The notes: generated by a model from the letters alone, not told the origin. DNA of 64,000 bases from Candidatus Krumholzibacteriota bacterium (GCA_016933255.1 JAFGBF010000015.1:79725-143724); one strand, 5' to 3'; positions 21,132 through 54,030 are shown, counted from the stretch's first letter. Numbers and translations: made by a program.

Positions 21132-22562
21132 TTACTTTTTCTTCTTGGATGACCTGAAATCCTCAGGGTCGATCTCGTGTTTTTTCATCAGATCGTGAAG
21201 AGTAGGCCGGCTTATCTTGAGTTCCTGCGATGCGGCTGAGACATTCCCGGAGAATCTGAGTAATACATCGATTATCATTCTTTGTTCCAGGTCTTCACGG
21301 GCTTCTTTGAGAGAGACGCCCGCCTCCGGAGGAATACGGGCAGGAGCGGATTCTGCCTGTTTATTTTTTTCGTCTTCAGGGCCGGGAAAAACAAGGTCCA
21401 TGTCCTCCGGCTGAATGATCCTTCCAGATGTCATGATCACAGCTCTCTTGACTCTGTTTTCTAGTTCGCGTACATTTCCGGGCCATGAGTGGCTATAGAG
21501 GACATTGCGCGCCGATTGGCCGAAGGCTCTTACATTTCTTGAGAACTCGGAATTAAAATGATGAAGGAAATGCATCGCAAGCAGGAGTATATCCTGCCCT
21601 CTGTCACGAAGAGGAGGAAGGGATATATTGATCGTGTTTATCCTGTAGTAGAGATCTTCCCTGAAAGTCCTTTCGCCGATCATCTTCGAGAGGTCCCTGT
21701 TAGTAGCGGCGATCACTCTGATATCGAGCTGTATCTGCTGCTGCCCTCCCACTCTTTCTATTACGTGGTCCTGAAGGAATCTGAGGATCTTGACCTGAAG
21801 AGCCAGGGGAAGTTCGCCGATCTCATCGAGAAAGATAGTTCCTCCCTCAGCGATCTCGAATTTTCCCGGTTTTGAAGAGACTGCCCCTGTGAAGCTTCCT
21901 TTTTCATGGCCGAACAATTCGCTCTCAAGCAGATTTTCAGGTATTGCGCCGCAATTGATCGGTATAAAGGGTCTGTTCTTCCGCGGGCTTCTCGCATGTA
22001 TAGCCCTTGCTATAAGCTCCTTGCCGGTCCCGCTTTCACCGGTTATGAGGACCGATACATCGGTGGGAGCTATTTTCTTGACGGCGTCGAATATATCAAG
22101 CATACCCGCAGACATGGATATTATATTTTCGAATTCGTGTCCGCTCCCGGGAGAAGACTTCAGTCTGGTTATCGTCGATTCAAGGGAGTGTATGTAGGAA
22201 GCCCGGCTCAGAATAACGCGGAGTTCATCGATATCCACCGGTTTTGAGTAGAAATCGATAGCGCCCGACGCGAGGGCTCTTAGAGCGTTTTCCTTGTAGT
22301 CGTGGCCTGTTATTACGATGACCTTGATCTGCGGGTCTATCTGCAGGGCCATCTCGAGGATTTGAAACCCCTCAAACTCATCCGTGTCGCCTGTCAGAGA
22401 AAGATCCAGGATCATCAGCTGCGGCGATTCTTCTTTTACAGCATTGACAGCCTCTTCTATGGTGCGGGCCTTGATGACCTCATATTTGTTTTTAAAAGCC
22501 CATTCGAGTTGTTTGAGGATGGTCTCCTCGTCATCGACGATCAAAAGTCTGGGTGATCCCAA
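21132..22562 (-). CDS. prsR: Sigma-54-dependent response regulator (NtrC/AtoC class), PrsR-like.
   Basis: REC domain (LLIVDDEE...D). AAA+ sigma-54 interaction domain (GESGTGKE, GAFTGA) and C-terminal Fis-type HTH. Lies immediately downstream of the PrsK-like kinase. Confidence 0.8.
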   Translation of the reverse strand: MGSPRLLIVDDEETILKQLEWAFKNKYEVIKARTIEEAVNAVKEESPQLMILDLSLTGDTDEFEGFQILEMALQIDPQIKVIVITGHDYKENALRALASGAIDFYSKPVDIDELRVILSRASYIHSLESTITRLKSSPGSGHEFENIISMSAGMLDIFDAVKKIAPTDVSVLITGESGTGKELIARAIHARSPRKNRPFIPINCGAIPENLLESELFGHEKGSFTGAVSSKPGKFEIAEGGTIFLDEIGELPLALQVKILRFLQDHVIERVGGQQQIQLDIRVIAATNRDLSKMIGERTFREDLYYRINTINISLPPLRDRGQDILLLAMHFLHHFNSEFSRNVRAFGQSARNVLYSHSWPGNVRELENRVKRAVIMTSGRIIQPEDMDLVFPGPEDEKNKQAESAPARIPPEAGVSLKEAREDLEQRMIIDVLLRFSGNVSAASQELKISRPTLHDLMKKHEIDPEDFRSSKKKK

Positions 22563-22577: not shown

Positions 22578-24683
22578 TTATTCTGATCCGGTTCCCGGCA
22601 GTATAATCGAGACAGAAGCGCCTTTTCCAGAAAGATTATCGATCGATATAGTGCCTCCATGTGCTTCTGCCATCGATTTACATAGAGCAAGGCCTATGCC
22701 CAGGCCGTTTTTTCGGGTCGAGCTGAATGGCTTGAAAAGGTCGTTTTTAATATAGTCAGGATCGAAGCCCTTTCCAGTATCAGACACATTGAGTCTCAAT
22801 CCGAATGGATCTTCCGAAGTAAGGCGAACCGATATCTTTCCTCCTCTCGGTGTTGCTTCTATCGAATTGAGTATCAGGTTCTCCACAATTCTTTCAATAG
22901 CGGATGGATCGATATCAGCGATTATCTGTTCAGATGGAGAATATTCAAGAGTGATATTTTTAGATCCAGCCATCGGCACAAGCTGTTCTATCTTTTCTCC
23001 TACAAGCGATACCGCTTCTGTCCGTACTCTGTTTACGGCTCCTGAATATTTGTGAGCGTTCAGAGAATTGATCAGGCTCTGCATCCTCTCTATCGATCTT
23101 TTAATCGTTATTATTGTATCTTTCTGAAATTCCTTGTTTTCCATGTTTTCTCTTGCGTTTTCAGCGGTAAGAGAAAGGATCTCGACGGTGTTTTTAAGGT
23201 CATGGATGACGAATGACGCGAACCGGTTGAACGATTCGATCTGTTTCGATTCAAGGAATCTTTCCTCCATAAGGAGGTTGTCAAGGGTGATAGCGGCCTG
23301 GTCGGCGATAGTAGCAAGGAAACTTCGGTCTTCTTCGCTGAAGGGAGCTCCTGTATCCTTTCTGCCCAGAGCTATAAAGCCCTTACACTCCTCCCCGTGG
23401 CCGAGAGGCAGAGCAGACTCGATCCATTCAGGGATATTTTCCGTATCAAGCTCGATTTTTGCTTCTGTCGAGGAGTGTTTCCTCCTGCCGGATCTTTTGT
23501 TAAATACCGTCAATTCGTCAGCTGTACACAGTTCCATCAGCCTGTTTGACGTCTCAGGAGTCCAGTCATCGCCTGTTGCTCCATAAGACGCTTCGATCCC
23601 GTTGTGGATATCGACCCATATGATGCCTCTCTGGACGATCATCGTCTCACAGAGCGATCCGATCGTGTTTGAGAGGAAATCATCTATTGTAAGGCTCGTG
23701 GCCATCAATCTTGAGAAATGACGCCACTCCTTTCGATAATTATAATTCTCAAGATAGAAATTATCATTCAGGAATATTCGAAGCTTTCTTCTCGCCCTTC
23801 CCGACATTCCGACGGCAAGCAGAAGAAATATGATAAAAATCCCTAAAACATAAAGATGGAATCTGTCATATGACATTCCGGCCAGGGCCGAGATCCACGA
23901 TATGATGGCAATCGATATAAAGTAGAGCCCGGCTACCACCACCGACACGGTCGATGATTTTTCTTTCAAAACAGGTGTCCTGATCTCGAATAGATTGTAT
24001 CTCGAATTCGCGTAGATAAAAGTTGTAGTGATGAAAATTATTCCGCAGGTTTCGACTGTCAGGAAACGCCGGTCGACCGAAGATAACGATAAAATCCGGC
24101 TCATTACCACGAAATTCAGAAATGATGCGGTTATTGTGCCGAGCATCGGGTATTTGAGAGTGACCTTGCCCTGGATATTTGCTGCTCTGTATGTGTTTTC
24201 CATGAAGTAGAGATAGCATACATTCACCAGAAGGAAAAAGATCCCGAACCCTTTGCCCAGCCAGGTAAAGACGATCTGATAAAAATATCCGTTTTCCTCG
24301 AAGGATATGCTTCTGATGATATAATGAAGCGGAGTGATGAGGCCGATCGCGGAAAAAATGATCAGAATGGTCAGAATCCCTGTGATCCTGTTTTTCAGCG
24401 GGTTATCTCCACGGTTCCGTGCGAAGAAATAGAAAAACGGAAGACCGAAGGCAGGGGATAATAGAGCGGCCACAAGCAGCAGTCGCAAAAATACCTGCGC
24501 CTGCTCGGGAGAATCCGCCCTTAGCAGAAGTCCCTGTGCGGCGGTGAAGAAAGCCAGGATCAGCGTCGATGGGATAAAGAAAAGTTTCTGATAATTAAAA
24601 CTTCCTCTTGTCAAACCTGCCCACAAAAGGAGGACAAGCAGTCCAGATGCAGTAAATGACAGTAGCGGAGCAAACAGGGTCAT
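22578..24683 (-). CDS. prsK: Sensor histidine kinase with a long polytopic N-terminal domain; PrsK-like (exosortase-system associated).
   Basis: About 300 aa of TM helices, then a cytoplasmic region. HisKA box FVIHDLKNTVEIL. HATPase_c (GLGIGLALCKSMAEAHGG). 701 aa and gene context match TIGR02916-type PrsK. Confidence 0.7.
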   Translation of the reverse strand: MTLFAPLLSFTASGLLVLLLWAGLTRGSFNYQKLFFIPSTLILAFFTAAQGLLLRADSPEQAQVFLRLLLVAALLSPAFGLPFFYFFARNRGDNPLKNRITGILTILIIFSAIGLITPLHYIIRSISFEENGYFYQIVFTWLGKGFGIFFLLVNVCYLYFMENTYRAANIQGKVTLKYPMLGTITASFLNFVVMSRILSLSSVDRRFLTVETCGIIFITTTFIYANSRYNLFEIRTPVLKEKSSTVSVVVAGLYFISIAIISWISALAGMSYDRFHLYVLGIFIIFLLLAVGMSGRARRKLRIFLNDNFYLENYNYRKEWRHFSRLMATSLTIDDFLSNTIGSLCETMIVQRGIIWVDIHNGIEASYGATGDDWTPETSNRLMELCTADELTVFNKRSGRRKHSSTEAKIELDTENIPEWIESALPLGHGEECKGFIALGRKDTGAPFSEEDRSFLATIADQAAITLDNLLMEERFLESKQIESFNRFASFVIHDLKNTVEILSLTAENARENMENKEFQKDTIITIKRSIERMQSLINSLNAHKYSGAVNRVRTEAVSLVGEKIEQLVPMAGSKNITLEYSPSEQIIADIDPSAIERIVENLILNSIEATPRGGKISVRLTSEDPFGLRLNVSDTGKGFDPDYIKNDLFKPFSSTRKNGLGIGLALCKSMAEAHGGTISIDNLSGKGASVSIILPGTGSE

Positions 24684-26170
24684 TTTAGGTCCTTCATTCT
24701 GTTAATATGTTTTTCTGCCTCTTTTGACACATTCGATTCAGGATACATCTCTACGCATCTTTCCAGGGCCTCGACAGCTTTTCCCTTATCACCAAGTTCT
24801 TTCTCATAGATAGACGCGGCCGTAAGGAAACTTTGGGCAAGCCTGGGGTATTGCGGATATCTTGCCGGAAGCGAAAGGAGCCGTTCCGCGGTTTTTTCCC
24901 ATTTTTTCTGCAGAGAGAGAGTCCGGATGAAGTATTCTTCGGCTTTAATTCTTATTCCAGCGTCATATTCTTTTGCAGTCATCATATCATAATGCTCCAG
25001 AGCTCTCTCGTAGGCATTTTTGGCGGCGTCGGCTTCTCCCAGCTTTTCAAAATGCATGGCGATCATGAGCGGAGACTCCATTCCCTGGAAAGTAGTTGGA
25101 AAACTGGTGTATATTGATTTGTAGTGCAGAGAAGCATCTACCCAGTTGCCGCGTTTATCCGAGATATTTGCAAGCTGCCAGGTCGCTTCAACTACTCCGC
25201 TTGCCGATGAAGCATGTTCTTTTATGACCTGATTATATATTTTTTCAGCTTCATCGTATCTCTTTGCCTCCTGGTGTATCTGTCCGAGCATCAGTAGCGC
25301 GGTGACCGTCTCCTGCGAATCAGGGAATTCTTTGATTATGGCCGTCAGGATCGAAGCTGCTTTATCCTGATTGCCAAACCCGTCCATCTCTATCTTTGCT
25401 TCAATGAACATTATCGACGGCCTGTCTTTTACCGTAGGGTATTGTTCCTCCATCTCCTTCAGGAGAGCCATGGCACTATCCCATTTCCGCTGTTCGAGCA
25501 GGGCTGTGACCAGGTTAAACCTTGTCTCTTTGAGAAGGGAAGGGTCCGCCGTTGTAGATATTATATCTCTGTATATCATTTCGCCCCTGCTCAGCCAGGC
25601 AGATCTTTTATTTTTCATATCCGGGCCTAAGTACAGTTTTGAGAGCCTGATAGGGACGAGAAGATACCTTCTGTTCATCATCGATGTCTTTTCGATATCC
25701 CCGCTGCCGAGAAATTCATCCGAAAACTTTTCAAATAGTGATATTGCCGATGGAATATCCCCGATCTGTTCGGATATGAACGCTGAGGACCAAAGAGCGT
25801 TGGCACGGGCTTTGGGGATATTGCCGGAAATGGAGTAAGCTTTTTGAAAATCATCGATAGCGCTCTTAAGGCTGCCTGTCCGGAATTCGAGCTCGGCAAG
25901 CTCCATTTGAGAGGAAACAACTATCAACTCCATGCCGTCGACGCTGTCGGCGTATGATGAATACCGATCTACTATCGAACGGTAGCTTTCTACGGTTCTG
26001 TCCACGAATTCCCTGTTCGTGGTGCCTGAAGGGAGTTCACGGTTCAGTTTTCTGGCATGGAAAAGTTCTTTTTCCGCTTTATAGAGCAGTGATTTTTCTT
26101 CGCTCGAGCACGCAAAGACCATAGCGGCCATCAGCAGGACAGCTGCCAACAGATTCATTCTTTTTTTCAT
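24680..26170 (-). CDS. TPR-repeat lipoprotein, possibly a short PrsT-like protein.
   Basis: Signal peptide plus lipobox (LLMAAMVFACSS). Multiple TPR-like helical repeats. 4-nt overlap with the prsK start. Confidence 0.55.
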   Translation of the reverse strand: MKKRMNLLAAVLLMAAMVFACSSEEKSLLYKAEKELFHARKLNRELPSGTTNREFVDRTVESYRSIVDRYSSYADSVDGMELIVVSSQMELAELEFRTGSLKSAIDDFQKAYSISGNIPKARANALWSSAFISEQIGDIPSAISLFEKFSDEFLGSGDIEKTSMMNRRYLLVPIRLSKLYLGPDMKNKRSAWLSRGEMIYRDIISTTADPSLLKETRFNLVTALLEQRKWDSAMALLKEMEEQYPTVKDRPSIMFIEAKIEMDGFGNQDKAASILTAIIKEFPDSQETVTALLMLGQIHQEAKRYDEAEKIYNQVIKEHASSASGVVEATWQLANISDKRGNWVDASLHYKSIYTSFPTTFQGMESPLMIAMHFEKLGEADAAKNAYERALEHYDMMTAKEYDAGIRIKAEEYFIRTLSLQKKWEKTAERLLSLPARYPQYPRLAQSFLTAASIYEKELGDKGKAVEALERCVEMYPESNVSKEAEKHINRMKDLK

Positions 26171-28703: not shown

Positions 28704-28740
28704 CAATAAAAAAACGGACGCAGGTGATTCTGCGTCCGTT
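28704..28740 (-). terminator. Strong rho-independent terminator between the PEP-CTERM substrate genes and the exosortase.
   Basis: Perfect 11-bp stem AACGGACGCAG/CTGCGTCCGTT with a 6-nt loop. On the minus strand it is followed by TTTTTTTATT. Confidence 0.75.
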
Positions 28741-28767
28741 CGAGGCCTGCAAGAAAAAGAAGTGTAA

Positions 28768-29475
28768 TCACGTTTTCTTTTTCTTTCTCAGAAGAGGAGT
28801 TATCCCGAGAAGTCCCAGGCCCAAAAGGCTGAGTGTGCCAGGTTCAGGAACCGCAAAACAACTTGAATCGTGGGAATTGGGGCTGACATAGCATTTACCG
28901 TTTGAATCCATCCCTATCGCGTCAAAGTTTACATAATCGAACCCGCTGACAACGATATCGAGTAACACTTCATCTCCCCAACCCGGTTCATGGATCCATC
29001 CTTCTTCGTAATGCCACGCCTTTGCCATAGAGTTATTTATTCTTCCGGCATCATAAAAATTGAAATTTTTGATGCTCGGAAGCATAGTCTTCACATACCA
29101 GTCCGGAGCGGCCGCAGCCAGTCCGGGGTCGCCGTAGTTGTAGAATGTGTTGATCTCGATTCCGTTGATCCATACAGTCCCGGATTGTCCTGTCGGAGTA
29201 TTTATGACGACAAAGACATCCATATAATCATACGCCGGGGGAGAGGTCACCAGATCTATAGATGGAGTCACTTCGGGAAGTGTTTCCCAGTACCCGACAA
29301 CTTTCAGCTCAAAATTGGCTGATGTAGAGATCCATGAGTCCTCATCCTCGAGGGCATAATTTGCGTAGTAGTCAGAGCCTGTAATATAGGTCTGAAGCCT
29401 TGGGACCGCTGAGGCAGAATCGGCAATTAGAGACCCGGCCAATACCGCTACGGTCAGAAGTAAAATCTTTTTCAT
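28768..29475 (-). CDS. PEP-CTERM sorting-domain protein, paralog B.
   Basis: Signal peptide MKKILLLTVAVLAGS. C-terminus VPEPGTLSLLGLGLLGITPLLRKKKKT (PEP motif, TM helix, basic tail). GGAGG RBS before ATG 29475. Confidence 0.85.
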   Translation of the reverse strand: MKKILLLTVAVLAGSLIADSASAVPRLQTYITGSDYYANYALEDEDSWISTSANFELKVVGYWETLPEVTPSIDLVTSPPAYDYMDVFVVINTPTGQSGTVWINGIEINTFYNYGDPGLAAAAPDWYVKTMLPSIKNFNFYDAGRINNSMAKAWHYEEGWIHEPGWGDEVLLDIVVSGFDYVNFDAIGMDSNGKCYVSPNSHDSSCFAVPEPGTLSLLGLGLLGITPLLRKKKKT

Positions 29476-29516
29476 TCGTATCCTCCGCACACAGTTTATA
29501 GTAATCAGCATTATCA

Positions 29517-30230
29517 TTATTTTTTCTTTCTCAGAAGAGGAGTTATCCCGAGAAGTCCCAGGCCCAAAAGGCTGAGCGTGCCAGGTTCAGGAACAGGATA
29601 GAAAGCTGTCGCATCGCAATCCCACGGATTGGTGTAGGTCACGCCTCTCGCGTCGAGTCCTATAGCGTCAAAATGTGTCCAGGAGAATCCCTTGGTCACG
29701 ACTTTAAAATCGATTTCCTGGCCATGTCCGGGAAGCTGAGGTGTACCGTCAATGTGGTCATAATAGTACGCCTGATGCTGGTTGTCGAGACCACCCTCAA
29801 TCTCATAGAAATTGAACTTTCCAAAGAGAGCCGGAGGAGCAATCCGCAGATACCACGCAGGGTTTGTTTCGTCAGGCACCGCATCGCAGTAGTTATAGAA
29901 AGTGCTGATCTCCACTCCGTCTATCCAGACTGTCCCCGACTGGCACATCGGGACGCTGATCGCGATCCAGGTTCTCATCTGATCACGTTCCGGATAAGCT
30001 GAGCCCACATTCAGAGGGGAGTCCGGATTAATGTCCTCTTCCCAGTACCCCACGACCCTCAGGTCGAATTCCTGCGAATATGTGACAAACGAATACTGGT
30101 CGAGCAGGCTGTGGAATTGTTCGTATTCTGAACCAACTATATAGGTCTGGAGCCTGGGGACCGCTGCGGCAGAGCCGGTAAAGAGCGCCAGAACAAGCAA
30201 AATGCCGGCAAAAGAAGTGACTTTCTTCAT
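29517..30230 (-). CDS. PEP-CTERM sorting-domain protein, paralog A.
   Basis: Signal peptide MKKVTSFAGILLVLALFTGSAAA. Identical C-terminal VPEPGTLSLLGLGLLGITPLLRKKK. Shares internal motifs with paralog B (VPRLQTYI, TVWI.G.EI.TFYNY). Confidence 0.85.
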   Translation of the reverse strand: MKKVTSFAGILLVLALFTGSAAAVPRLQTYIVGSEYEQFHSLLDQYSFVTYSQEFDLRVVGYWEEDINPDSPLNVGSAYPERDQMRTWIAISVPMCQSGTVWIDGVEISTFYNYCDAVPDETNPAWYLRIAPPALFGKFNFYEIEGGLDNQHQAYYYDHIDGTPQLPGHGQEIDFKVVTKGFSWTHFDAIGLDARGVTYTNPWDCDATAFYPVPEPGTLSLLGLGLLGITPLLRKKK

Positions 30231-30298
30231 ATTTTTCTCTCTCAGGTGTCGGAATCGGTTATAATAAGCGAAATTATCCTATCTATGCCGGTAGTACC

Positions 30299-30313
30299 GC
30301 AATCTGCGTGCCA
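30299..30313 (-). promoter_or_regulatory. Sigma-54 (RpoN) promoter driving the PEP-CTERM gene pair.
   Basis: The minus strand reads TGGCAC-gcaga-TTGC, a perfect match to the -24/-12 consensus TGGCAC-N5-TTGC. It sits about 70 nt upstream of the ATG at 30230. Confidence 0.75.
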
Positions 30314-30393
30314 TTTTTGAAATCATTTGTATCATGTTATATAACAACATGTTATTGGTCTGCTCTATTGTTTCTGAAAGGGAGCCGGCAAAA

Positions 30394-30429
30394 GTGTAAA
30401 AGATGCCGACAGTCAGGCACCTTTTACAC
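30394..30429. promoter_or_regulatory. Inverted repeat GTGTAAAAG-N18-CTTTTACAC. Candidate enhancer (UAS) for the sigma-54 promoter and/or terminator hairpin of the upstream gene.
   Basis: Perfect 9-bp arms with a nested TGCC/GGCA. It lies 80-115 bp upstream of the -24 element, across an AT-rich bendable spacer, and about 25 nt downstream of the stop of the 30452..31054 gene. Confidence 0.5.
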
Positions 30430-30451
30430 CGTATGCCAGATGATCTTGGGG

Positions 30452-31054
30452 TCAGCGGCTTTTTCGGGTTCTTGTCGATCCAAGCGATCCGAACGAGGAA
30501 CTTCTGCTTCTTCTCGTGCTTGAACTGAATCTTGATCCAAAACCTGGGCTGTTCCTCATCGAGCCGCGGCGTACGCTGGTGTTTATGTTGATATTTACAG
30601 GGTTTACGGTCTGGCGCCGATTTCCTCCCCGGACTATGCTCGAGGGCGAAGCCATCATCCCCGTGCCTCGAGAAGCTCCATTTCTCGTCCTGCTTGTCTG
30701 AGGCATAAAGGAGCCGGATATTCCTTTATGGGTATAGCCGGAAGCTTTGAGATCCGCACTCCATCCGGTCCTCTGCTGGCGCATATTTCTGTTTCCTGCC
30801 AGCGCTGCCGGCCTTCTGAACTCTTGAGATGACCTTTCGATCCCGGTCGACCAGCCGGCAGGCCCGGTTTTTCTTGAACTGATTACAGATGAACGGGTCA
30901 CAGCTTTCTGCCAGTCTCTGTCGACTGCATCGCTCTGGTTTTTAGCCCACTTTGAGAATTCACTGTTTTCCTTTGCGCAGGCATCGGTGCCGGCAAAGAA
31001 CAACGGATTTATTACAATAACCAGCAACACTGCGGTTGCGATCAAGTAACGCAT
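30452..31054 (-). CDS. Secreted, Arg/Ser/Gly-rich low-complexity protein of unknown function.
   Basis: Clear signal peptide (MRYLIATAVLLVIVINPLFFAGTDA). The rest is basic and disordered (SRFSSSTRRSRSSSFGSLGSTRTRKSR). Preceded by a near-consensus sigma-70 promoter. Confidence 0.5.
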   Translation of the reverse strand: MRYLIATAVLLVIVINPLFFAGTDACAKENSEFSKWAKNQSDAVDRDWQKAVTRSSVISSRKTGPAGWSTGIERSSQEFRRPAALAGNRNMRQQRTGWSADLKASGYTHKGISGSFMPQTSRTRNGASRGTGMMASPSSIVRGGNRRQTVNPVNININTSVRRGSMRNSPGFGSRFSSSTRRSRSSSFGSLGSTRTRKSR

Positions 31055-31170
31055 GACAACTTCCTAACATCTATCTGATACGGATATACAAAGAATGCGG
31101 ATTTAGAAAACACCAACTGTACGCAGAGTCTTAGAAGAGGAGAGAATCTTCTAATTCGTTTACTACAGAA

Positions 31171-31199
31171 ATTGTACCATACCTCGCCGGATATGTCAA
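31171..31199 (-). promoter_or_regulatory. Sigma-70 promoter (TTGACA-17-TACAAT) for the 30452..31054 gene.
   Basis: The minus strand reads TTGACAtatccggcgaggtatggTACAAT. Leader of about 110 nt to the ATG. Confidence 0.6.
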
Positions 31200-31337
31200 C
31201 CTCACGAAGATATCGGCGAGATTGAATATTATCTTTTCCGACTTTTTTCGGTACCATGATCCGATACTGAATAAGGAGCGCGCGCTTTTCAGCGGTCATG
31301 CTAAAATCATAAAAAAATATATCCGGGACATCCCCCC

Positions 31338-31366
31338 TTGACTTTTATTATGACTCCGATTATGTT
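31338..31366 (+). promoter_or_regulatory. Sigma-70 promoter (TTGACT-17-TATGTT) for the downstream glutamate dehydrogenase.
   Basis: Hexamers with 17-nt spacing read directly from the sequence. About 40 nt upstream of the ATG, which has an AAAGGAG RBS. Confidence 0.55.
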
Positions 31367-31407
31367 GCCTGCGTCAGGTAGCTCTTAATCGGAAAGGAGA
31401 ATTAATA

Positions 31408-32694
31408 ATGACTGATAAGTCGTTTAATCCCTTTGAGATGGCTCAGACGCAGTTCGACAGCATCGCGGACAAGCTTGACCTGGATGAAGGAACGAGAGAA
31501 CTTCTGCGATATAACCAGAGAGAGTATCATGTGAGCATTCCGGTGCGCATGGATGATGGCACTGTTAAAGTATTCAGGGGTTTCAGAGTTCAGCATAATG
31601 ATTCAAGAGGCCCGGCAAAGGGAGGTATTCGTTTTCATCCGATGGAGACTATAAATACCGTGCGGGCCCTGGCTATGTGGATGACATGGAAGTGCGCTGT
31701 CGTGGATATTCCTTTAGGCGGGGCAAAGGGCGGAGTCATATGCGATCCGCATAACCTGAGTGCCCGGGAACAGGAAGGGATATGCAGGGGGTGGATCCGC
31801 CAGTTATCCAGGGATCTCGGTCCCCTGAACGATGTTCCGGCACCGGATGTCATGACAACCCCCCAGCATATGCTATGGATGCTGGACGAATTCGAGACTA
31901 TCAGGGGGTCCAAACTCCCCGGGTTTATTACGGGCAAGCCAGTGGGTATGGGCGGTTCGATGGGCAGGACCGAGGCTACCGGCTATGGCGTGATATTCAA
32001 CGTCCGTGAGGCTCTGAAGGAACTGAAGATCCCTCCAGCAGATACAACCGCGAGCATTCAGGGTTTTGGCAATGTCGCGCAATACGCCATTGAACTATAT
32101 AACCAGATATGGGGAAAGGTCGTTTGCGTATCCTGCTGGGACCAGAAGGATCAGATTTCCTATTCTTTCAAGAAACTTGACGGTATCGATCTCGTAGAAT
32201 TAAAAGGTATTACCGATCGTTTTGGGGGCATCGACAAGAAGAAAGCTGAAAAATCAGGCTATGAGATCCTCCCGGGAGATGCCTGGATAGAACAGGAAGT
32301 CGATATTCTCATCCCCGCTGCGCTTGAAAACCAGATTACCGGGGAAAATGTCGGGAGAATCAGCGATAAGGTAAAGATTATCGCCGAAGGGGCCAATGGC
32401 CCGACGACGCCGGATGCCGACAAGGAAATATCAAGCCGAAAGATTTTTATGATTCCCGATCTTCTGGCTAATGCCGGAGGCGTAACGTGCAGTTATTTTG
32501 AGCAGGTTCAGTGTAACATGAACTATTTCTGGGAGAAAGACGAAGTTCTTGGTAAGCTCGACACCAAGATAACAAACGCGTTCAACGCCGTAAACGGACT
32601 GGCCAAATCCAAAAAACTGTATATGCGTGACGCTGCTTATGTTATAGCTGTGGGCCGGGTAGTCGAAGCTTGCAGGGAACGTGGTTGGGTCTAA
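31408..32694 (+). CDS. gdh: Glutamate dehydrogenase (hexameric, about 430-aa class).
   Basis: Catalytic lysine motif IPLGGAKGGVICDP. Rossmann GFGNVAQYA. 428 aa. Confidence 0.9.
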   Translation: MTDKSFNPFEMAQTQFDSIADKLDLDEGTRELLRYNQREYHVSIPVRMDDGTVKVFRGFRVQHNDSRGPAKGGIRFHPMETINTVRALAMWMTWKCAVVDIPLGGAKGGVICDPHNLSAREQEGICRGWIRQLSRDLGPLNDVPAPDVMTTPQHMLWMLDEFETIRGSKLPGFITGKPVGMGGSMGRTEATGYGVIFNVREALKELKIPPADTTASIQGFGNVAQYAIELYNQIWGKVVCVSCWDQKDQISYSFKKLDGIDLVELKGITDRFGGIDKKKAEKSGYEILPGDAWIEQEVDILIPAALENQITGENVGRISDKVKIIAEGANGPTTPDADKEISSRKIFMIPDLLANAGGVTCSYFEQVQCNMNYFWEKDEVLGKLDTKITNAFNAVNGLAKSKKLYMRDAAYVIAVGRVVEACRERGWV

Positions 32695-51291: not shown

Positions 51292-51561
51292 TTATTTTTC
51301 CCTTCAGGGTTAGGGTGAACAGAACAAGGATCCAGGACTCGGGACCCTGGGTATTTGTAATTATTAATACTGCCTGGAGAGAAAATAGTTTCATTAATTT
51401 TCAGATGAAACTGTAACTCCCTTGAAAATCAACATGTTGCCTGTGTCGCGTCAAAGGTTAAGAGGGCCTTTGCTGTTTCTCCTGGTGATATCAGGTTGTA
51501 CTATTCAGTTTCTTCAGATAGAGTAGACCTGTTAAACGGCTAATGATATGAGGTGAAAGAG

Positions 51562-54030
51562 ATGAGAATGAAGAAAAAGAATCTGCTTATCGGAGTCCTT
51601 ATTGCCGCTGTGATCGTTCTTGCGGCAAGTATATTTCTTAGGGTCATCCTTACAAAGGAAAGGCTCGCCGCAATGATCGTCCCAAGGCTCGAGAAAGCGG
51701 TCGATGCCAGTATCGAAATCGGTGATATCGGGATCCGATTTCCCTTCGGTTTCGGTGTCGATATCGGAAAGATGACATTTGTCAAGGAATTGCCGGGGAC
51801 AGGTACGATCCGGTTCGATTCTGAAAAGATTACGGTAGACGCATCGCTCATCAGCCTTATCCGGCGCAACCCCGAGATCAAGAGGGTATCTGTAAAGAAC
51901 GGTTCATTATTATCTTCTCTGTCCGAAAAAGAGATAGACCTGGCTCTTATCGGATTCGAAGCAGGTCTATCGGTGCTGCCGGATGGAAATTCTTACAATA
52001 TCGATGCCGATATATCCATATCCGGGATAGAAGCGGAGAAGAAAAATGAGGAAGGAAAATTCAGGGTCGAGAATGTATCGATCAGCTGCAAGGCTGTATC
52101 GAACAGGTCTTTCGATTCCATTAAAATCGACGACGCGGCGGTTGATATAAACGGTCTTATAAAGGCGGTTGTGAGCGGTCAGGTGAACAGCCTTAACGGA
52201 AAAAGAGAATTATCCCTGAGGATAGACAGCGATCCGATCGAAGCCGTGCCTCTTATGGGCTGGGTCCTCGGACTCGATCTCAGGCCGTTTGTGCCTTCGA
52301 TGAAGGAAGGGGTTATCGCGGCAGATCTTCCCGCGGATCTTGCCGGAGGGAGGGTCTCGTTCAGTGCCGATCTCGCGGGAGATCCGGCTGTCCCCGGGGA
52401 GCTTGCCGTAAACGGGGCGGTTATGGCGGAAGGGTTGATCCTGGAGCCTCGCGATATAGCCCTGCCTGTCGTCATCGACGGGACCATAAAGATTTCGGAT
52501 AAGGTGATCAGCAGTGAAAAGATCACCGCCTCTGCCGGGAAATCATCTGCAACAGCGGGTTTCAGCTTGAAGCCATCCGGGGACGGTCCTGAAAAACGGG
52601 CTGATTTCTCATGCATTATCGATCTTGATGGGGGTGATCTGTCAAAAGGACTTCCAGATGGCGCATCGCCTGTGGCTGGAAAGATCATGGCGGATATCCG
52701 CGGTGGAGGGACGCCAGCGGTTTTTTCTTCCCTCTTTCCAGGCGGAGATGGCGGGATTCCTCGCGAAGCGATCGAAAGTGCGTGGAAAGATATCGAACTT
52801 AAAGGTACGTTGAAGATCGAGAATGCAGGAATGAAATCCCCCGACGGTCTGGTCGTTATATCCGGATTTAAGGGATCGGCGAATATAATGAAGGGAAGTA
52901 TCGATCAGGTAAAAGCGGAATTTCTCTTAAATGGCAGCCGATACAGCGCGAAGGCTTCTCTAAACGGGATCATGCCGGCGATAGCGGAACTTAAGGTGAT
53001 AGAGGAGAAAAAAGAGGTTACCGGATTTGCGGAGATTCTGGATTCGGTTAAAAATATTCCGAAGATATCACTTGAAGTATCGGGCCGGGCGCTTGACCTT
53101 CGTCCTTTTTCCAGGGAAGCCGAAAAGAGGAAAAAAATCTCCAAAAGCGCTGCCGTAAAGAAAGAAAATGAGACTGCCGAAAAGAATCTTTTCGGAGGGG
53201 CTCTTCTGTTTCTTTTCGATTGCAGCGCAGGGATGAAGGTGGATACTCTTTATACCGAAAAAGCGCTTTTAAGCGCTGTTTCCGGAGCGGGCAGGATCAG
53301 AAGGGGAAAAATACTGATCGATCCTTTGTCATTTGATTATGCCGGCGGAAAGGGTAATGGAACCGCGTCGATCGACCTCAGGGATCCGGAGTCTGTCAAA
53401 TCGAAATTCAATCTGGCATTCTCCGGTGTCGAAGCTGGAAGAGCCCTATCTCCCCTTCACAATATGGGGAATCTCGTCTCAGGCAAATTTTCTTTCAGTA
53501 CGAAAGGGGAGCTAAGCTCCGGGCCTGACATAGATCTCTTGAAGACGATCTCCGTTCTCGGCAACGCGTCATCCGAGGGCGGCAAGATCGATCTTTCGAA
53601 ATTCATCTCGCCTGTCTCGAATATCGCTGGATTTGACCTGTCGGCAATTGAAAAGGTCGATTTTCACAAATGGGCGGGCAATTTTTTTATAGAAAAGGGG
53701 AGGCTCGGTACCGATGACTGGAAGATAGATTCTTCCAGCGGAAACTGGGATGTAAACGGAAGTTTCGGTTTTGACGGGACCCTCGATTACAAGGCCAGAC
53801 TATTCATGACTCCGCAGATGCAGAAAAAGATCAAAGATTTGAATAAATACAGGGATCTCATTGATCTTTTTCGCGATGAAAAGGGAAATCTTATCCTTGA
53901 TCTTGATGTCAGCGGGAATTCAAAAACTCCGAAGGTCGGGATCGATCAGAGCAGAGCCCAGAAAAAGGCTGGAGAAAAACTGCTTGAGGGAATCAAAAAA
54001 GGGATAGGCGACCTGTTTAAAAAGGAATGA
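51562..54030 (+). CDS. AsmA-family (AsmA/TamB-like) envelope protein.
   Basis: N-terminal signal-anchor (LLIGVLIAAVIVLAASIFL), then a long beta-rich periplasmic region. ATG 51562 follows AGGTGAAAGAG. Confidence 0.45.
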   Translation: MRMKKKNLLIGVLIAAVIVLAASIFLRVILTKERLAAMIVPRLEKAVDASIEIGDIGIRFPFGFGVDIGKMTFVKELPGTGTIRFDSEKITVDASLISLIRRNPEIKRVSVKNGSLLSSLSEKEIDLALIGFEAGLSVLPDGNSYNIDADISISGIEAEKKNEEGKFRVENVSISCKAVSNRSFDSIKIDDAAVDINGLIKAVVSGQVNSLNGKRELSLRIDSDPIEAVPLMGWVLGLDLRPFVPSMKEGVIAADLPADLAGGRVSFSADLAGDPAVPGELAVNGAVMAEGLILEPRDIALPVVIDGTIKISDKVISSEKITASAGKSSATAGFSLKPSGDGPEKRADFSCIIDLDGGDLSKGLPDGASPVAGKIMADIRGGGTPAVFSSLFPGGDGGIPREAIESAWKDIELKGTLKIENAGMKSPDGLVVISGFKGSANIMKGSIDQVKAEFLLNGSRYSAKASLNGIMPAIAELKVIEEKKEVTGFAEILDSVKNIPKISLEVSGRALDLRPFSREAEKRKKISKSAAVKKENETAEKNLFGGALLFLFDCSAGMKVDTLYTEKALLSAVSGAGRIRRGKILIDPLSFDYAGGKGNGTASIDLRDPESVKSKFNLAFSGVEAGRALSPLHNMGNLVSGKFSFSTKGELSSGPDIDLLKTISVLGNASSEGGKIDLSKFISPVSNIAGFDLSAIEKVDFHKWAGNFFIEKGRLGTDDWKIDSSSGNWDVNGSFGFDGTLDYKARLFMTPQMQKKIKDLNKYRDLIDLFRDEKGNLILDLDVSGNSKTPKVGIDQSRAQKKAGEKLLEGIKKGIGDLFKKE

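Follow-up and report, generated by a model that had tools for sequence, protein, structure and literature searches.

A predicted PrsR enhancer that may double as the 3' arm of an intrinsic terminator upstream of PEP-CTERM genes in Candidatus Krumholzibacteriota

How should a short palindrome be read when it lies just beyond the end of one gene and, at the same time, about 100 bp upstream of the sigma-54 promoter of the next? The case considered here comes from a 64,000-nt stretch of the genome of a Candidatus Krumholzibacteriota bacterium (GCA_016933255.1, JAFGBF010000015.1:79725-143724), which is referred to below as the window. An earlier reading, made from the sequence alone, described a perfect 9-bp inverted repeat at this place, with a nested TGCC...GGCA and a secreted-protein gene immediately upstream, and proposed that it might be an enhancer site for the activator PrsR, the terminator of the upstream gene, or both. 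The descriptive part of that sequence-only reading holds throughout. The repeat GTGTAAAAG-N18-CTTTTACAC is found at exactly 30394-30429 with perfect 9-bp arms, its centre is 98 nt and its proximal edge 80 nt upstream of the TGGCAC of the sigma-54 promoter, and its distal arm begins 22 nt past the stop codon (TGA) of a 200-aa ORF. The nested TGCC/GGCA is present as well and lengthens the arms to 14 nt (30394-30407 and 30416-30429) around an 8-nt spacer. Within these longer arms 13/14 positions are complementary (93%), and the sole mismatch, A:C on the plus strand, is a G·U pair in minus-strand RNA.

All of the genes around the repeat are on the minus strand (Table 1). Following the direction of transcription, one meets a sigma-70-like promoter, the 200-aa ORF, the repeat, an AT-rich block, the sigma-54 promoter and two PEP-CTERM genes; past this two-gene operon come a canonical terminator, exosortase, EpsI, a membrane protein, a TPR protein, PrsK and PrsR. 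The last two are encoded 6-9 kb downstream of the promoter, in one gene string with exosortase and EpsI. Encoded between PrsK and the exosortase genes, the TPR protein (24680-26170, minus strand) passes the YbgF/CpoB model (92.5 against 90.1), and it scores 31 bits against a cutoff of 312 for PrsT, the TPR lipoprotein of TIGR02917; a canonical PrsT is not evident at this locus. The product of the first PEP-CTERM gene ends in VPEPGTLSLLGLGLLGITPLLRKKK, and the true start of the second gene is probably the methionine of MKKILLL.

Table 1. Features around the inverted repeat, in window coordinates
Feature	Position	Strand	Remarks
PrsR, sigma-54-dependent response regulator	21132..22562	-	TIGR02915, 564 bits against a cutoff of 502.6
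PrsK histidine kinase	22578..24683	-	TIGR02916, 311 bits against a cutoff of 300
Canonical intrinsic terminator ending the two-gene operon	28712..28741	-	dG -20.9 kcal/mol, T8 tail
PEP-CTERM paralogue, operon gene 2	28768..29517	-	
PEP-CTERM 'choice-of-anchor N' gene 1	29517..30230	-	driven by the sigma-54 promoter
Inverted, degenerate second box TGTCGGAATCGGTTATAA	30247..30264	+	transcribed leader, about +24 to +41
Sigma-54 promoter TGGCACgcagaTTGC	30299..30313	-	TGGCAC-N5-TTGC (-24/-12); TTGC to ATG 68 nt
AT-rich palindromes and repeats TAACATGTTGTTATATAACATG	30330..30356		between box and sigma-54 promoter
UUUU run	30390..30393	-	immediately 3' of the hairpin, sense transcript
Inverted repeat, 14-nt arms and 8-nt spacer	30394..30429	-	14-15 bp hairpin in minus-strand RNA
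PEP-CTERM box (Haft motif 1) TGTCGGCATCTTTTACAC	30394..30411	-	predicted PrsR upstream activating sequence, about -124 to -107
Distal arm GTGTAAAAGGTGCC	30416..30429	-	complementary to the box, lineage-specific
Upstream 200-aa gene	30452..31054	-	signal-peptide-like N-terminus, Arg/Ser-rich tail
Near-consensus sigma-70-type promoter of the 200-aa gene	31171..31199	-	TTGACA-17-TACAAT with TG, extended -10, 11/12 matches

The 200-aa protein upstream of the repeat has no match in NCBIfam and belongs to no known family. Its homologues share 52-81% amino-acid identity, and the position of its gene is kept in the relatives whose loci were examined. The hexamers of the sigma-70-type promoter are also kept across the subclade to which the window belongs, with one position varying. 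Among relatives, conservation is higher in the leader of the gene, about 115 nt long, than in its coding sequence (for example in AGAAGATTCTCTCCTCTTCT, TTCTAAATCCGC and TATCCGTATCAGATAGATGTAAGGAAG), and the leader may be a regulatory RNA (within 31055-31199, minus strand); a search of 29400-31500 against Rfam at E<=1 returned nothing. One relative, L119 (ENA ERZ23491372), has an intergenic region and a 200-aa gene close to those of the window (78% amino-acid identity). Only one PEP-CTERM gene is present there, sharing about 51% identity with the first paralogue of the window, and exosortase comes directly after it, so the copy number of the PEP-CTERM gene varies within the subclade.

Judged from composition by itself, the repeat is of modest significance. 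Perfect 9-bp inverted repeats with a spacer of 3-30 nt occur 35 times in the window against 8.6 +/- 3.5 in shuffled sequence, and repeats with 14-nt arms and no more than one mismatch occur at two places against 0.33 expected, at least one being present in 9/40 shuffles. The only other repeat of this longer kind, AAAAAGATCAAAGA...TCATTGATCTTTTT with a spacer of 20-22 nt, is at 53823-53871, inside or near the end of an 825-aa ORF (51553-54030). The dyad itself is single-copy within the window, and GTGTAAAAG with up to one mismatch shows no enrichment window-wide (12 occurrences against 8.2 expected). What marks the repeat as non-random is the comparison with its relatives, since both arms are invariant in six related sequences among which 48% of intergenic columns are invariant overall.

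The two arms turn out to have quite different histories, and the proximal arm is the more widespread. An alignment of the PEP-CTERM protein, run against GTDB species genomes, recovered 38 true homologues, which come from MAGs of Krumholzibacteriota and Latescibacterota. Of these 38 loci, 25 carry TGGCAY-N5-TTGC about 85 nt ahead of the ATG, the other 13 being mostly second genes of tandem pairs or truncated by their contigs. Once the upstream regions of the 25 had been lined up by their TGGCA only, so that no motif was prescribed, nearly all of them displayed an 18-nt motif, TGTCGGAATnnTTTACAC, whose end lies 80 ±1 nt upstream of TGGCA. All told, this box keeps its fixed distance of 80 ±1 nt in about 30 promoters of the two phyla, approximately 27 of them outside the window's subclade, and in the latter the 45 nt that precede the box show no conserved sequence. 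A position weight matrix was built from 28 sites, with the window and its close relatives left out (training range 20.7-29.5 bits), and carries more than 1.4 bits of information at 11/18 positions. The box of the window scores 24.0 bits and is the only strong match in 64 kb, the runner-up reaching 13.3. It is asymmetric: its 18 nt hold the promoter-proximal arm and a further 4 nt of the repeat's spacer, that is, half of the 'loop'.

Two further observations arose from this comparison. Most promoters outside the subclade (L001-L037 and L081; gctGGGGGatatCCCCCaac in L007) include a GGGG-N5-7-CCCC dyad about 10 nt downstream of the box, and in L023 its counterpart has changed symmetrically to GCG...CGC. 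This dyad has been lost from the subclade of the window, which gained the distal arm; the corresponding region of the window is 30370-30390. Separately, a second perfect sigma-54 site in the window (TGGCAC-N5-TTGC, 55098-55084, minus strand) was considered as a PrsR target and rejected, for it has GTTTACAC 26 nt upstream but no match to the box matrix. It precedes a lipoprotein-like gene that starts at about 55027 and has no NCBIfam family, and is presumably served by another bEBP (bacterial enhancer-binding protein).

The identity of the box is suggested by earlier work on the PEP-CTERM system. In the description by Haft et al. 2006 (BMC Biol 4:29, PMC1569441), PEP-CTERM genes of Proteobacteria are preceded by a 17-nt 'motif 1' with TTTACA at its 3' end; a spacer of 62.8 ± 10.6 nt (range 32-92) leads to a 17-nt sigma-54 motif, 'motif 2', and the start codon lies about 71 nt further on. 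The authors report that the phylogenetic profile of the DNA site pointed to PrsR, PrsK and PrsT. RpoN and PrsK/PrsR are required for PEP-CTERM gene transcription in Zoogloea and Aquincola (PMC9012009, PMC9850573). In the searchable literature only this genetic dependence on PrsK/PrsR and RpoN was found, and no study of direct PrsR binding to any PEP-CTERM box.

The site in the window agrees closely with the published description of motif 1. It reads TGTCGGCATCTTTTACA(C), 17-18 nt ending in TTTACA(C), its distance of 80 nt from the promoter falls within the range of 32-92, and it lies in an intergenic region of 221 nt, with the start codon of a PEP-CTERM gene about 70 nt beyond TGGCAC-N5-TTGC (the exact distance is in Table 1). 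PrsR and PrsK, both above their equivalog cutoffs, are encoded beside exosortase and EpsI; of the three proteins in the profile, PrsT is the one not evident at this locus. The identification draws on the text description of motif 1 and on one beta-proteobacterial example: in the MAG locus L067, CGTCGGATTTTCTTACA is followed after a 61-nt spacer by TGGCACatctcTTGC, before a PEP-CTERM protein. Having this form of the box with a 61-nt spacer in a beta-proteobacterium, L067 bridges the proteobacterial and Krumholzibacteriota versions, and its spacer differs from that of the window-type promoters by 19-20 nt, close to two helical turns. That said, the systems are not the same in every respect. The motif in that description is confined to Proteobacteria, whereas the window belongs to Candidatus Krumholzibacteriota; the spacer there is about 63 ±11 nt, whereas here it is rigid at 80 ±1 nt. 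Window-type promoters also add an inverted box in the leader, discussed below, and in the window's subclade the box is in addition the 3' arm of a hairpin.

Taken together, these comparisons make the 18-nt box very probably a PrsR enhancer. Binding of PrsR here is something that we infer, and the comparative argument for it is well supported. The proposal of the sequence-only reading, that the dyad is a candidate PrsR enhancer, therefore stands in one part and falls in another: a PrsR-type box does lie here, at a fixed distance from a conserved sigma-54 promoter and with PrsR and PrsK encoded at the locus, but the 9-bp dyad does not appear to be the binding unit, as approximately 27 promoters have the box without a distal arm. 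The same reading had suggested looking for further copies of the dyad in the genome and had counted uniqueness against a PrsR site. Dyad and box are indeed single-copy in the 64-kb window, and the box recurs in orthologous promoters elsewhere. Uniqueness is not a valid refutation, however, because the PrsR regulon may consist of this operon alone, and it is the orthologous promoters that supply the evidence.

Several features of the promoter recall better studied members of the same activator family. The NifA upstream activating sequence is TGT-N10-ACA, and NtrC binds 17-bp dyads at glnAp2. The window box has an outer TGT-N11-ACA, is located some 100-125 bp before a -24/-12 promoter with an AT-rich region intervening, and would be served by PrsR, a Fis-type HTH activator of the NtrC family. 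Unlike the NtrC and NifA sites, the box is asymmetric at its inner positions (TGTCGG against TGTAAA), and in place of tandem sites there is one upstream site with a partner downstream of the start site. The intervening AT-rich block consists of overlapping palindromes and direct repeats (CATGTTAT, present twice, and AACATGTT) and aligns with a block, tAAc...Tt...ata.aa, that is conserved at other loci. It is a candidate DNA-bending, IHF-like region, and inspection of 30318-30356 by eye gave no convincing match to the IHF consensus WATCAANNNNTTR.

The distal arm has a far narrower distribution. Homologues of the PEP-CTERM protein and the 200-aa protein led to the syntenic loci, and the full repeat was found in six distinct sequences (the window, L085, L118, L119, L120 and L082/83/84). 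It is absent from L121 and L081, which keep the 200-aa gene and have the box, and from the approximately 27 other promoters. Within the subclade both arms are invariant in 6/6 sequences, the G·T position included, while the flanks have diverged and the loop is 8 or 9 nt long with a variable 5' part (TGAC, CAAAC, CCAAC, AAAC or GCAAC). Invariance extends furthest in ACTGTCGGCATCTTTTACACTTTT (24 nt), followed by the distal arm (12+2), ATTCCGACAC (10) and AAAATGGCA (9), and the chance of 14 invariant columns in the distal arm, estimated from these six sequences, is 0.48^14, or about 3e-5. On this pattern the distal arm is a recent, lineage-specific addition under strong selection.

The arrangement as a symmetric operator was examined and failed: the distal half is missing in the ~27 box-bearing promoters, and within the subclade its spacing from the box shifts by 1 bp. 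Two forms of such symmetry were also tried and rejected. As a full inverted box, the distal arm has a gapless matrix score below 0 bits on the plus strand, and a GAC-N-GTC symmetry in the loop occurs in the window sequence only and is absent in relatives.

What, then, might the distal arm be for? As sense, minus-strand RNA the repeat folds into a hairpin with a 14-15 bp stem (dG -22.4 kcal/mol, z -5.6), and with flanks included the plus-strand RNA folds less well (-23.9 against -31.4). The hairpin energies of -22.4, -21.2 and -24.4 kcal/mol compare with that of the operon's own canonical terminator (-20.9). Both the G·U pair and the U-run are found on the sense strand only, and the TTTT that follows the stem never varies within the subclade but does elsewhere. 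The sigma-70-type promoter of the 200-aa gene points at the box, and the short distance from the stop codon of that gene leaves no room for another terminator. At the other promoters a canonical terminator lies 7-75 nt upstream of the box in 11/27, and in L001 it abuts the box. The distal arm, moreover, complements the variable inner positions of the subclade's own box (GGCATC with GGTGCC), and a hairpin tolerates a change of 1 bp in its loop.

Not every feature is that of a textbook terminator. The window has, like intrinsic terminators, a stem-loop of about -22 kcal/mol at 22 nt past a stop codon, with a U-run and strand-specific features; it differs from them in having 4 U only, a stem base that is A/U-rich below a G+C-rich top, and a 3' arm that a second function also constrains. 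Short U-tracts (UUUUG/A) occur in 5/6 subclade sequences. A simple terminator scan makes no call on the UUUUG tail of the window and calls a terminator in L082, where the tail is TTTTT (UUUUUCU). ACACTTT also occurs in about 30% of the other loci, so the T-run belongs in part to the flank of the box, with or without a hairpin. In the nearest outgroups with the 200-aa gene, L121 and L081, no recognisable terminator was found, and termination may therefore be non-essential. On balance the hairpin is predicted to be the intrinsic terminator of the 200-aa gene. The earlier suggestion that it doubles as the upstream gene's terminator thus draws support from the strength of the stem and the UUUU that follows, and is weakened by the shortness of that U-tract and the silence of the scan in the window.

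These observations can be joined in an explanation with two layers. At the level of DNA, the box would act as the upstream activating sequence of the sigma-54 promoter: phosphorylated PrsR would bind it, loop across the AT-rich block to the sigma-54 RNA polymerase, and through this contact switch on the two PEP-CTERM genes. At the level of RNA, the window and its five closest sequenced relatives have gained, at a distance of 8-9 nt on the upstream side, a 14-nt complement of the box. Once the 200-aa gene is transcribed, this distal arm would pair with the box to form the hairpin, which is followed by UUUU and would terminate the transcript, insulating a tightly regulated sigma-54 promoter from read-through. 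The palindrome is most probably an enhancer borrowed for the 3' arm of a terminator, and not a symmetric operator. As a whole, the proposal that a PrsR enhancer has been recruited as the 3' arm of an intrinsic terminator is the one towards which we lean, if only by a little.

An alternative is that the whole dyad constitutes an extended or bipartite PrsR site, in which the distal arm would serve as a further TTTTACAC half-site in inverted orientation, bringing in an extra PrsR dimer and helping the activator ring to assemble, the hairpin being incidental. NtrC-type bEBPs often need two dimer sites, and the 3' half of the box, its most conserved part, recurs perfectly but inverted in the distal arm. 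Loss of the GGGG-N-CCCC dyad from the subclade suggests that something may have been replaced, and two unrelated PEP-CTERM promoters, L093 and L097, have GTGTAAA 20-26 nt upstream of the box. The invariance of the arm would fit contact by a protein as well as pairing in RNA, and the two are not formally separated by these sequences. Against this, the negative matrix score and the shifting distance noted above are awkward for a protein site, approximately 27 other promoters work with nothing conserved in the 45 nt upstream of the box, and the half-site centres are 28 bp apart, compared with about 11 bp for a dimer site. The match of the arm to the variable inner positions of the subclade box is likewise expected of pairing and not of a consensus half-site. 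Overall a bipartite site seems unlikely, though not negligibly so.

The homologue search with the 200-aa gene added three more intergenic sequences, in which the arms were identical, leaving no compensatory change to analyse; the box function holds the proximal arm constant, so that the distal arm can show none. Metagenomes were also scanned for GTGTAAA-N20-30-TTTACAC-N74-86-TGGCAY-N5-TTGC in a search for hairpin-bearing relatives, and the 32 loci that resulted included zero members of the subclade and gave no covariation data. Most of them precede glgA or unrelated genes, and two, the L093 and L097 just mentioned, precede PEP-CTERM genes and have box-like proximal sites. Dyads of the form TGTAAA...TTTACA near sigma-54 promoters are therefore not specific to PrsR. 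This lack of specificity also counts against a bipartite PrsR site, as GTGTAAA-N-TTTACAC in this setting belongs mostly to other regulons.

The glgA loci form a group of their own. In soil metagenomes, the glycogen synthase gene glgA is preceded by TGGCACACGCCTTGC in L086, L089, L091, L094, L096, L100, L107, L108 and L117 (also L090, L095 and L112), with a perfect 9-bp dyad, GTGTAAAAA-N20-TTTTTACAC, about 80 nt upstream; the interior of this dyad lacks self-complementarity. The arrangement resembles a sigma-54-dependent glgA regulon with an enhancer of its own.

A second alternative keeps the hairpin at work in RNA but makes it something other than, or not mainly, a terminator: a 3'-end stabiliser or processing site, or a leaky attenuator. 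In the attenuator version, sigma-70 transcripts would read into the PEP-CTERM genes, possibly modulated by template-bound PrsR acting as a roadblock. The combination of a strong stem with a short U-tract and an A/U-rich base is what such a role might look like, the outgroups do without a terminator, and the box in read-through RNA would be complementary to an element of the leader, ATTCCGACA (30261-30247). Yet canonical terminators occupy the analogous position in 11/27 other loci, and the L082 variant has a tail of 5 U, and we regard such a role as fairly improbable. That the repeat is a terminator only, or a chance palindrome, and has no enhancer role is very improbable indeed, for although hairpins after stop codons are usually terminators and 9-bp inverted repeats are common in the window, the proximal arm is part of an 18-nt motif that keeps its fixed distance from a sigma-54 promoter at about 27 loci with no hairpin.

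The two-layer explanation leaves aside one further element, the inverted and degenerate second box in the transcribed leader of the PEP-CTERM operon. In the window this leader box scores 10.8 bits and is the third-best match to the matrix. Across L001-L037, L081-L085, L119 and L120, the best antisense match lies 34-35 nt after the -12 TGC in 29/33 distinct promoters and reaches up to 22.5 bits, and the invariance of ATTCCGACAC in the subclade adds to the evidence for it. The centres of the leader box and the upstream box are 147 bp apart, or 14 helical turns.

Binding sites for bEBPs on both sides of a sigma-54 promoter have precedents in the Caulobacter FlbD ftr elements and in the low-affinity NtrC 'governor' sites at glnAp2, which can activate or limit transcription. 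The likeness is one of layout, with sites distal to the promoter and sites proximal to or downstream of it, and there is no sequence relationship; the boxes described here, by contrast, are inverted, stand at a fixed 147 bp, and include a downstream member in the transcribed leader. It is conceivable, if rather doubtful, that PrsR clamps or loops the promoter between two inverted boxes (at about -115 and +33), combining activation with a governor or roadblock function, and that, in the subclade where the upstream box is also the terminator arm, PrsR occupancy and sigma-70 read-through are physically coupled. In variants of this coupling, PrsR on its site could aid termination, or polymerases that terminate there could dislodge it. 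If true, this would be a new regulatory architecture for a bEBP, in an uncultured phylum.

The findings refine a known system and do not overturn current understanding. The PEP-CTERM box, predicted in 2006 from proteobacterial genomes, is new for this phylum, and its presence in Krumholzibacteriota and Latescibacterota shows that the PrsK/PrsR-sigma-54 circuit has been kept, together with its cis element, well outside the Proteobacteria. With TGTCGGAATnnTTTACAC at 80 nt from TGGCA there is now a sharp consensus for regulon prediction in uncultured lineages, and the leader box offers a concrete hypothesis on how a PrsR-type bEBP engages its promoter. In the proposed overlap of enhancer and terminator, one sequence would be open to two readings, the activator taking it as duplex DNA and the polymerase as RNA.
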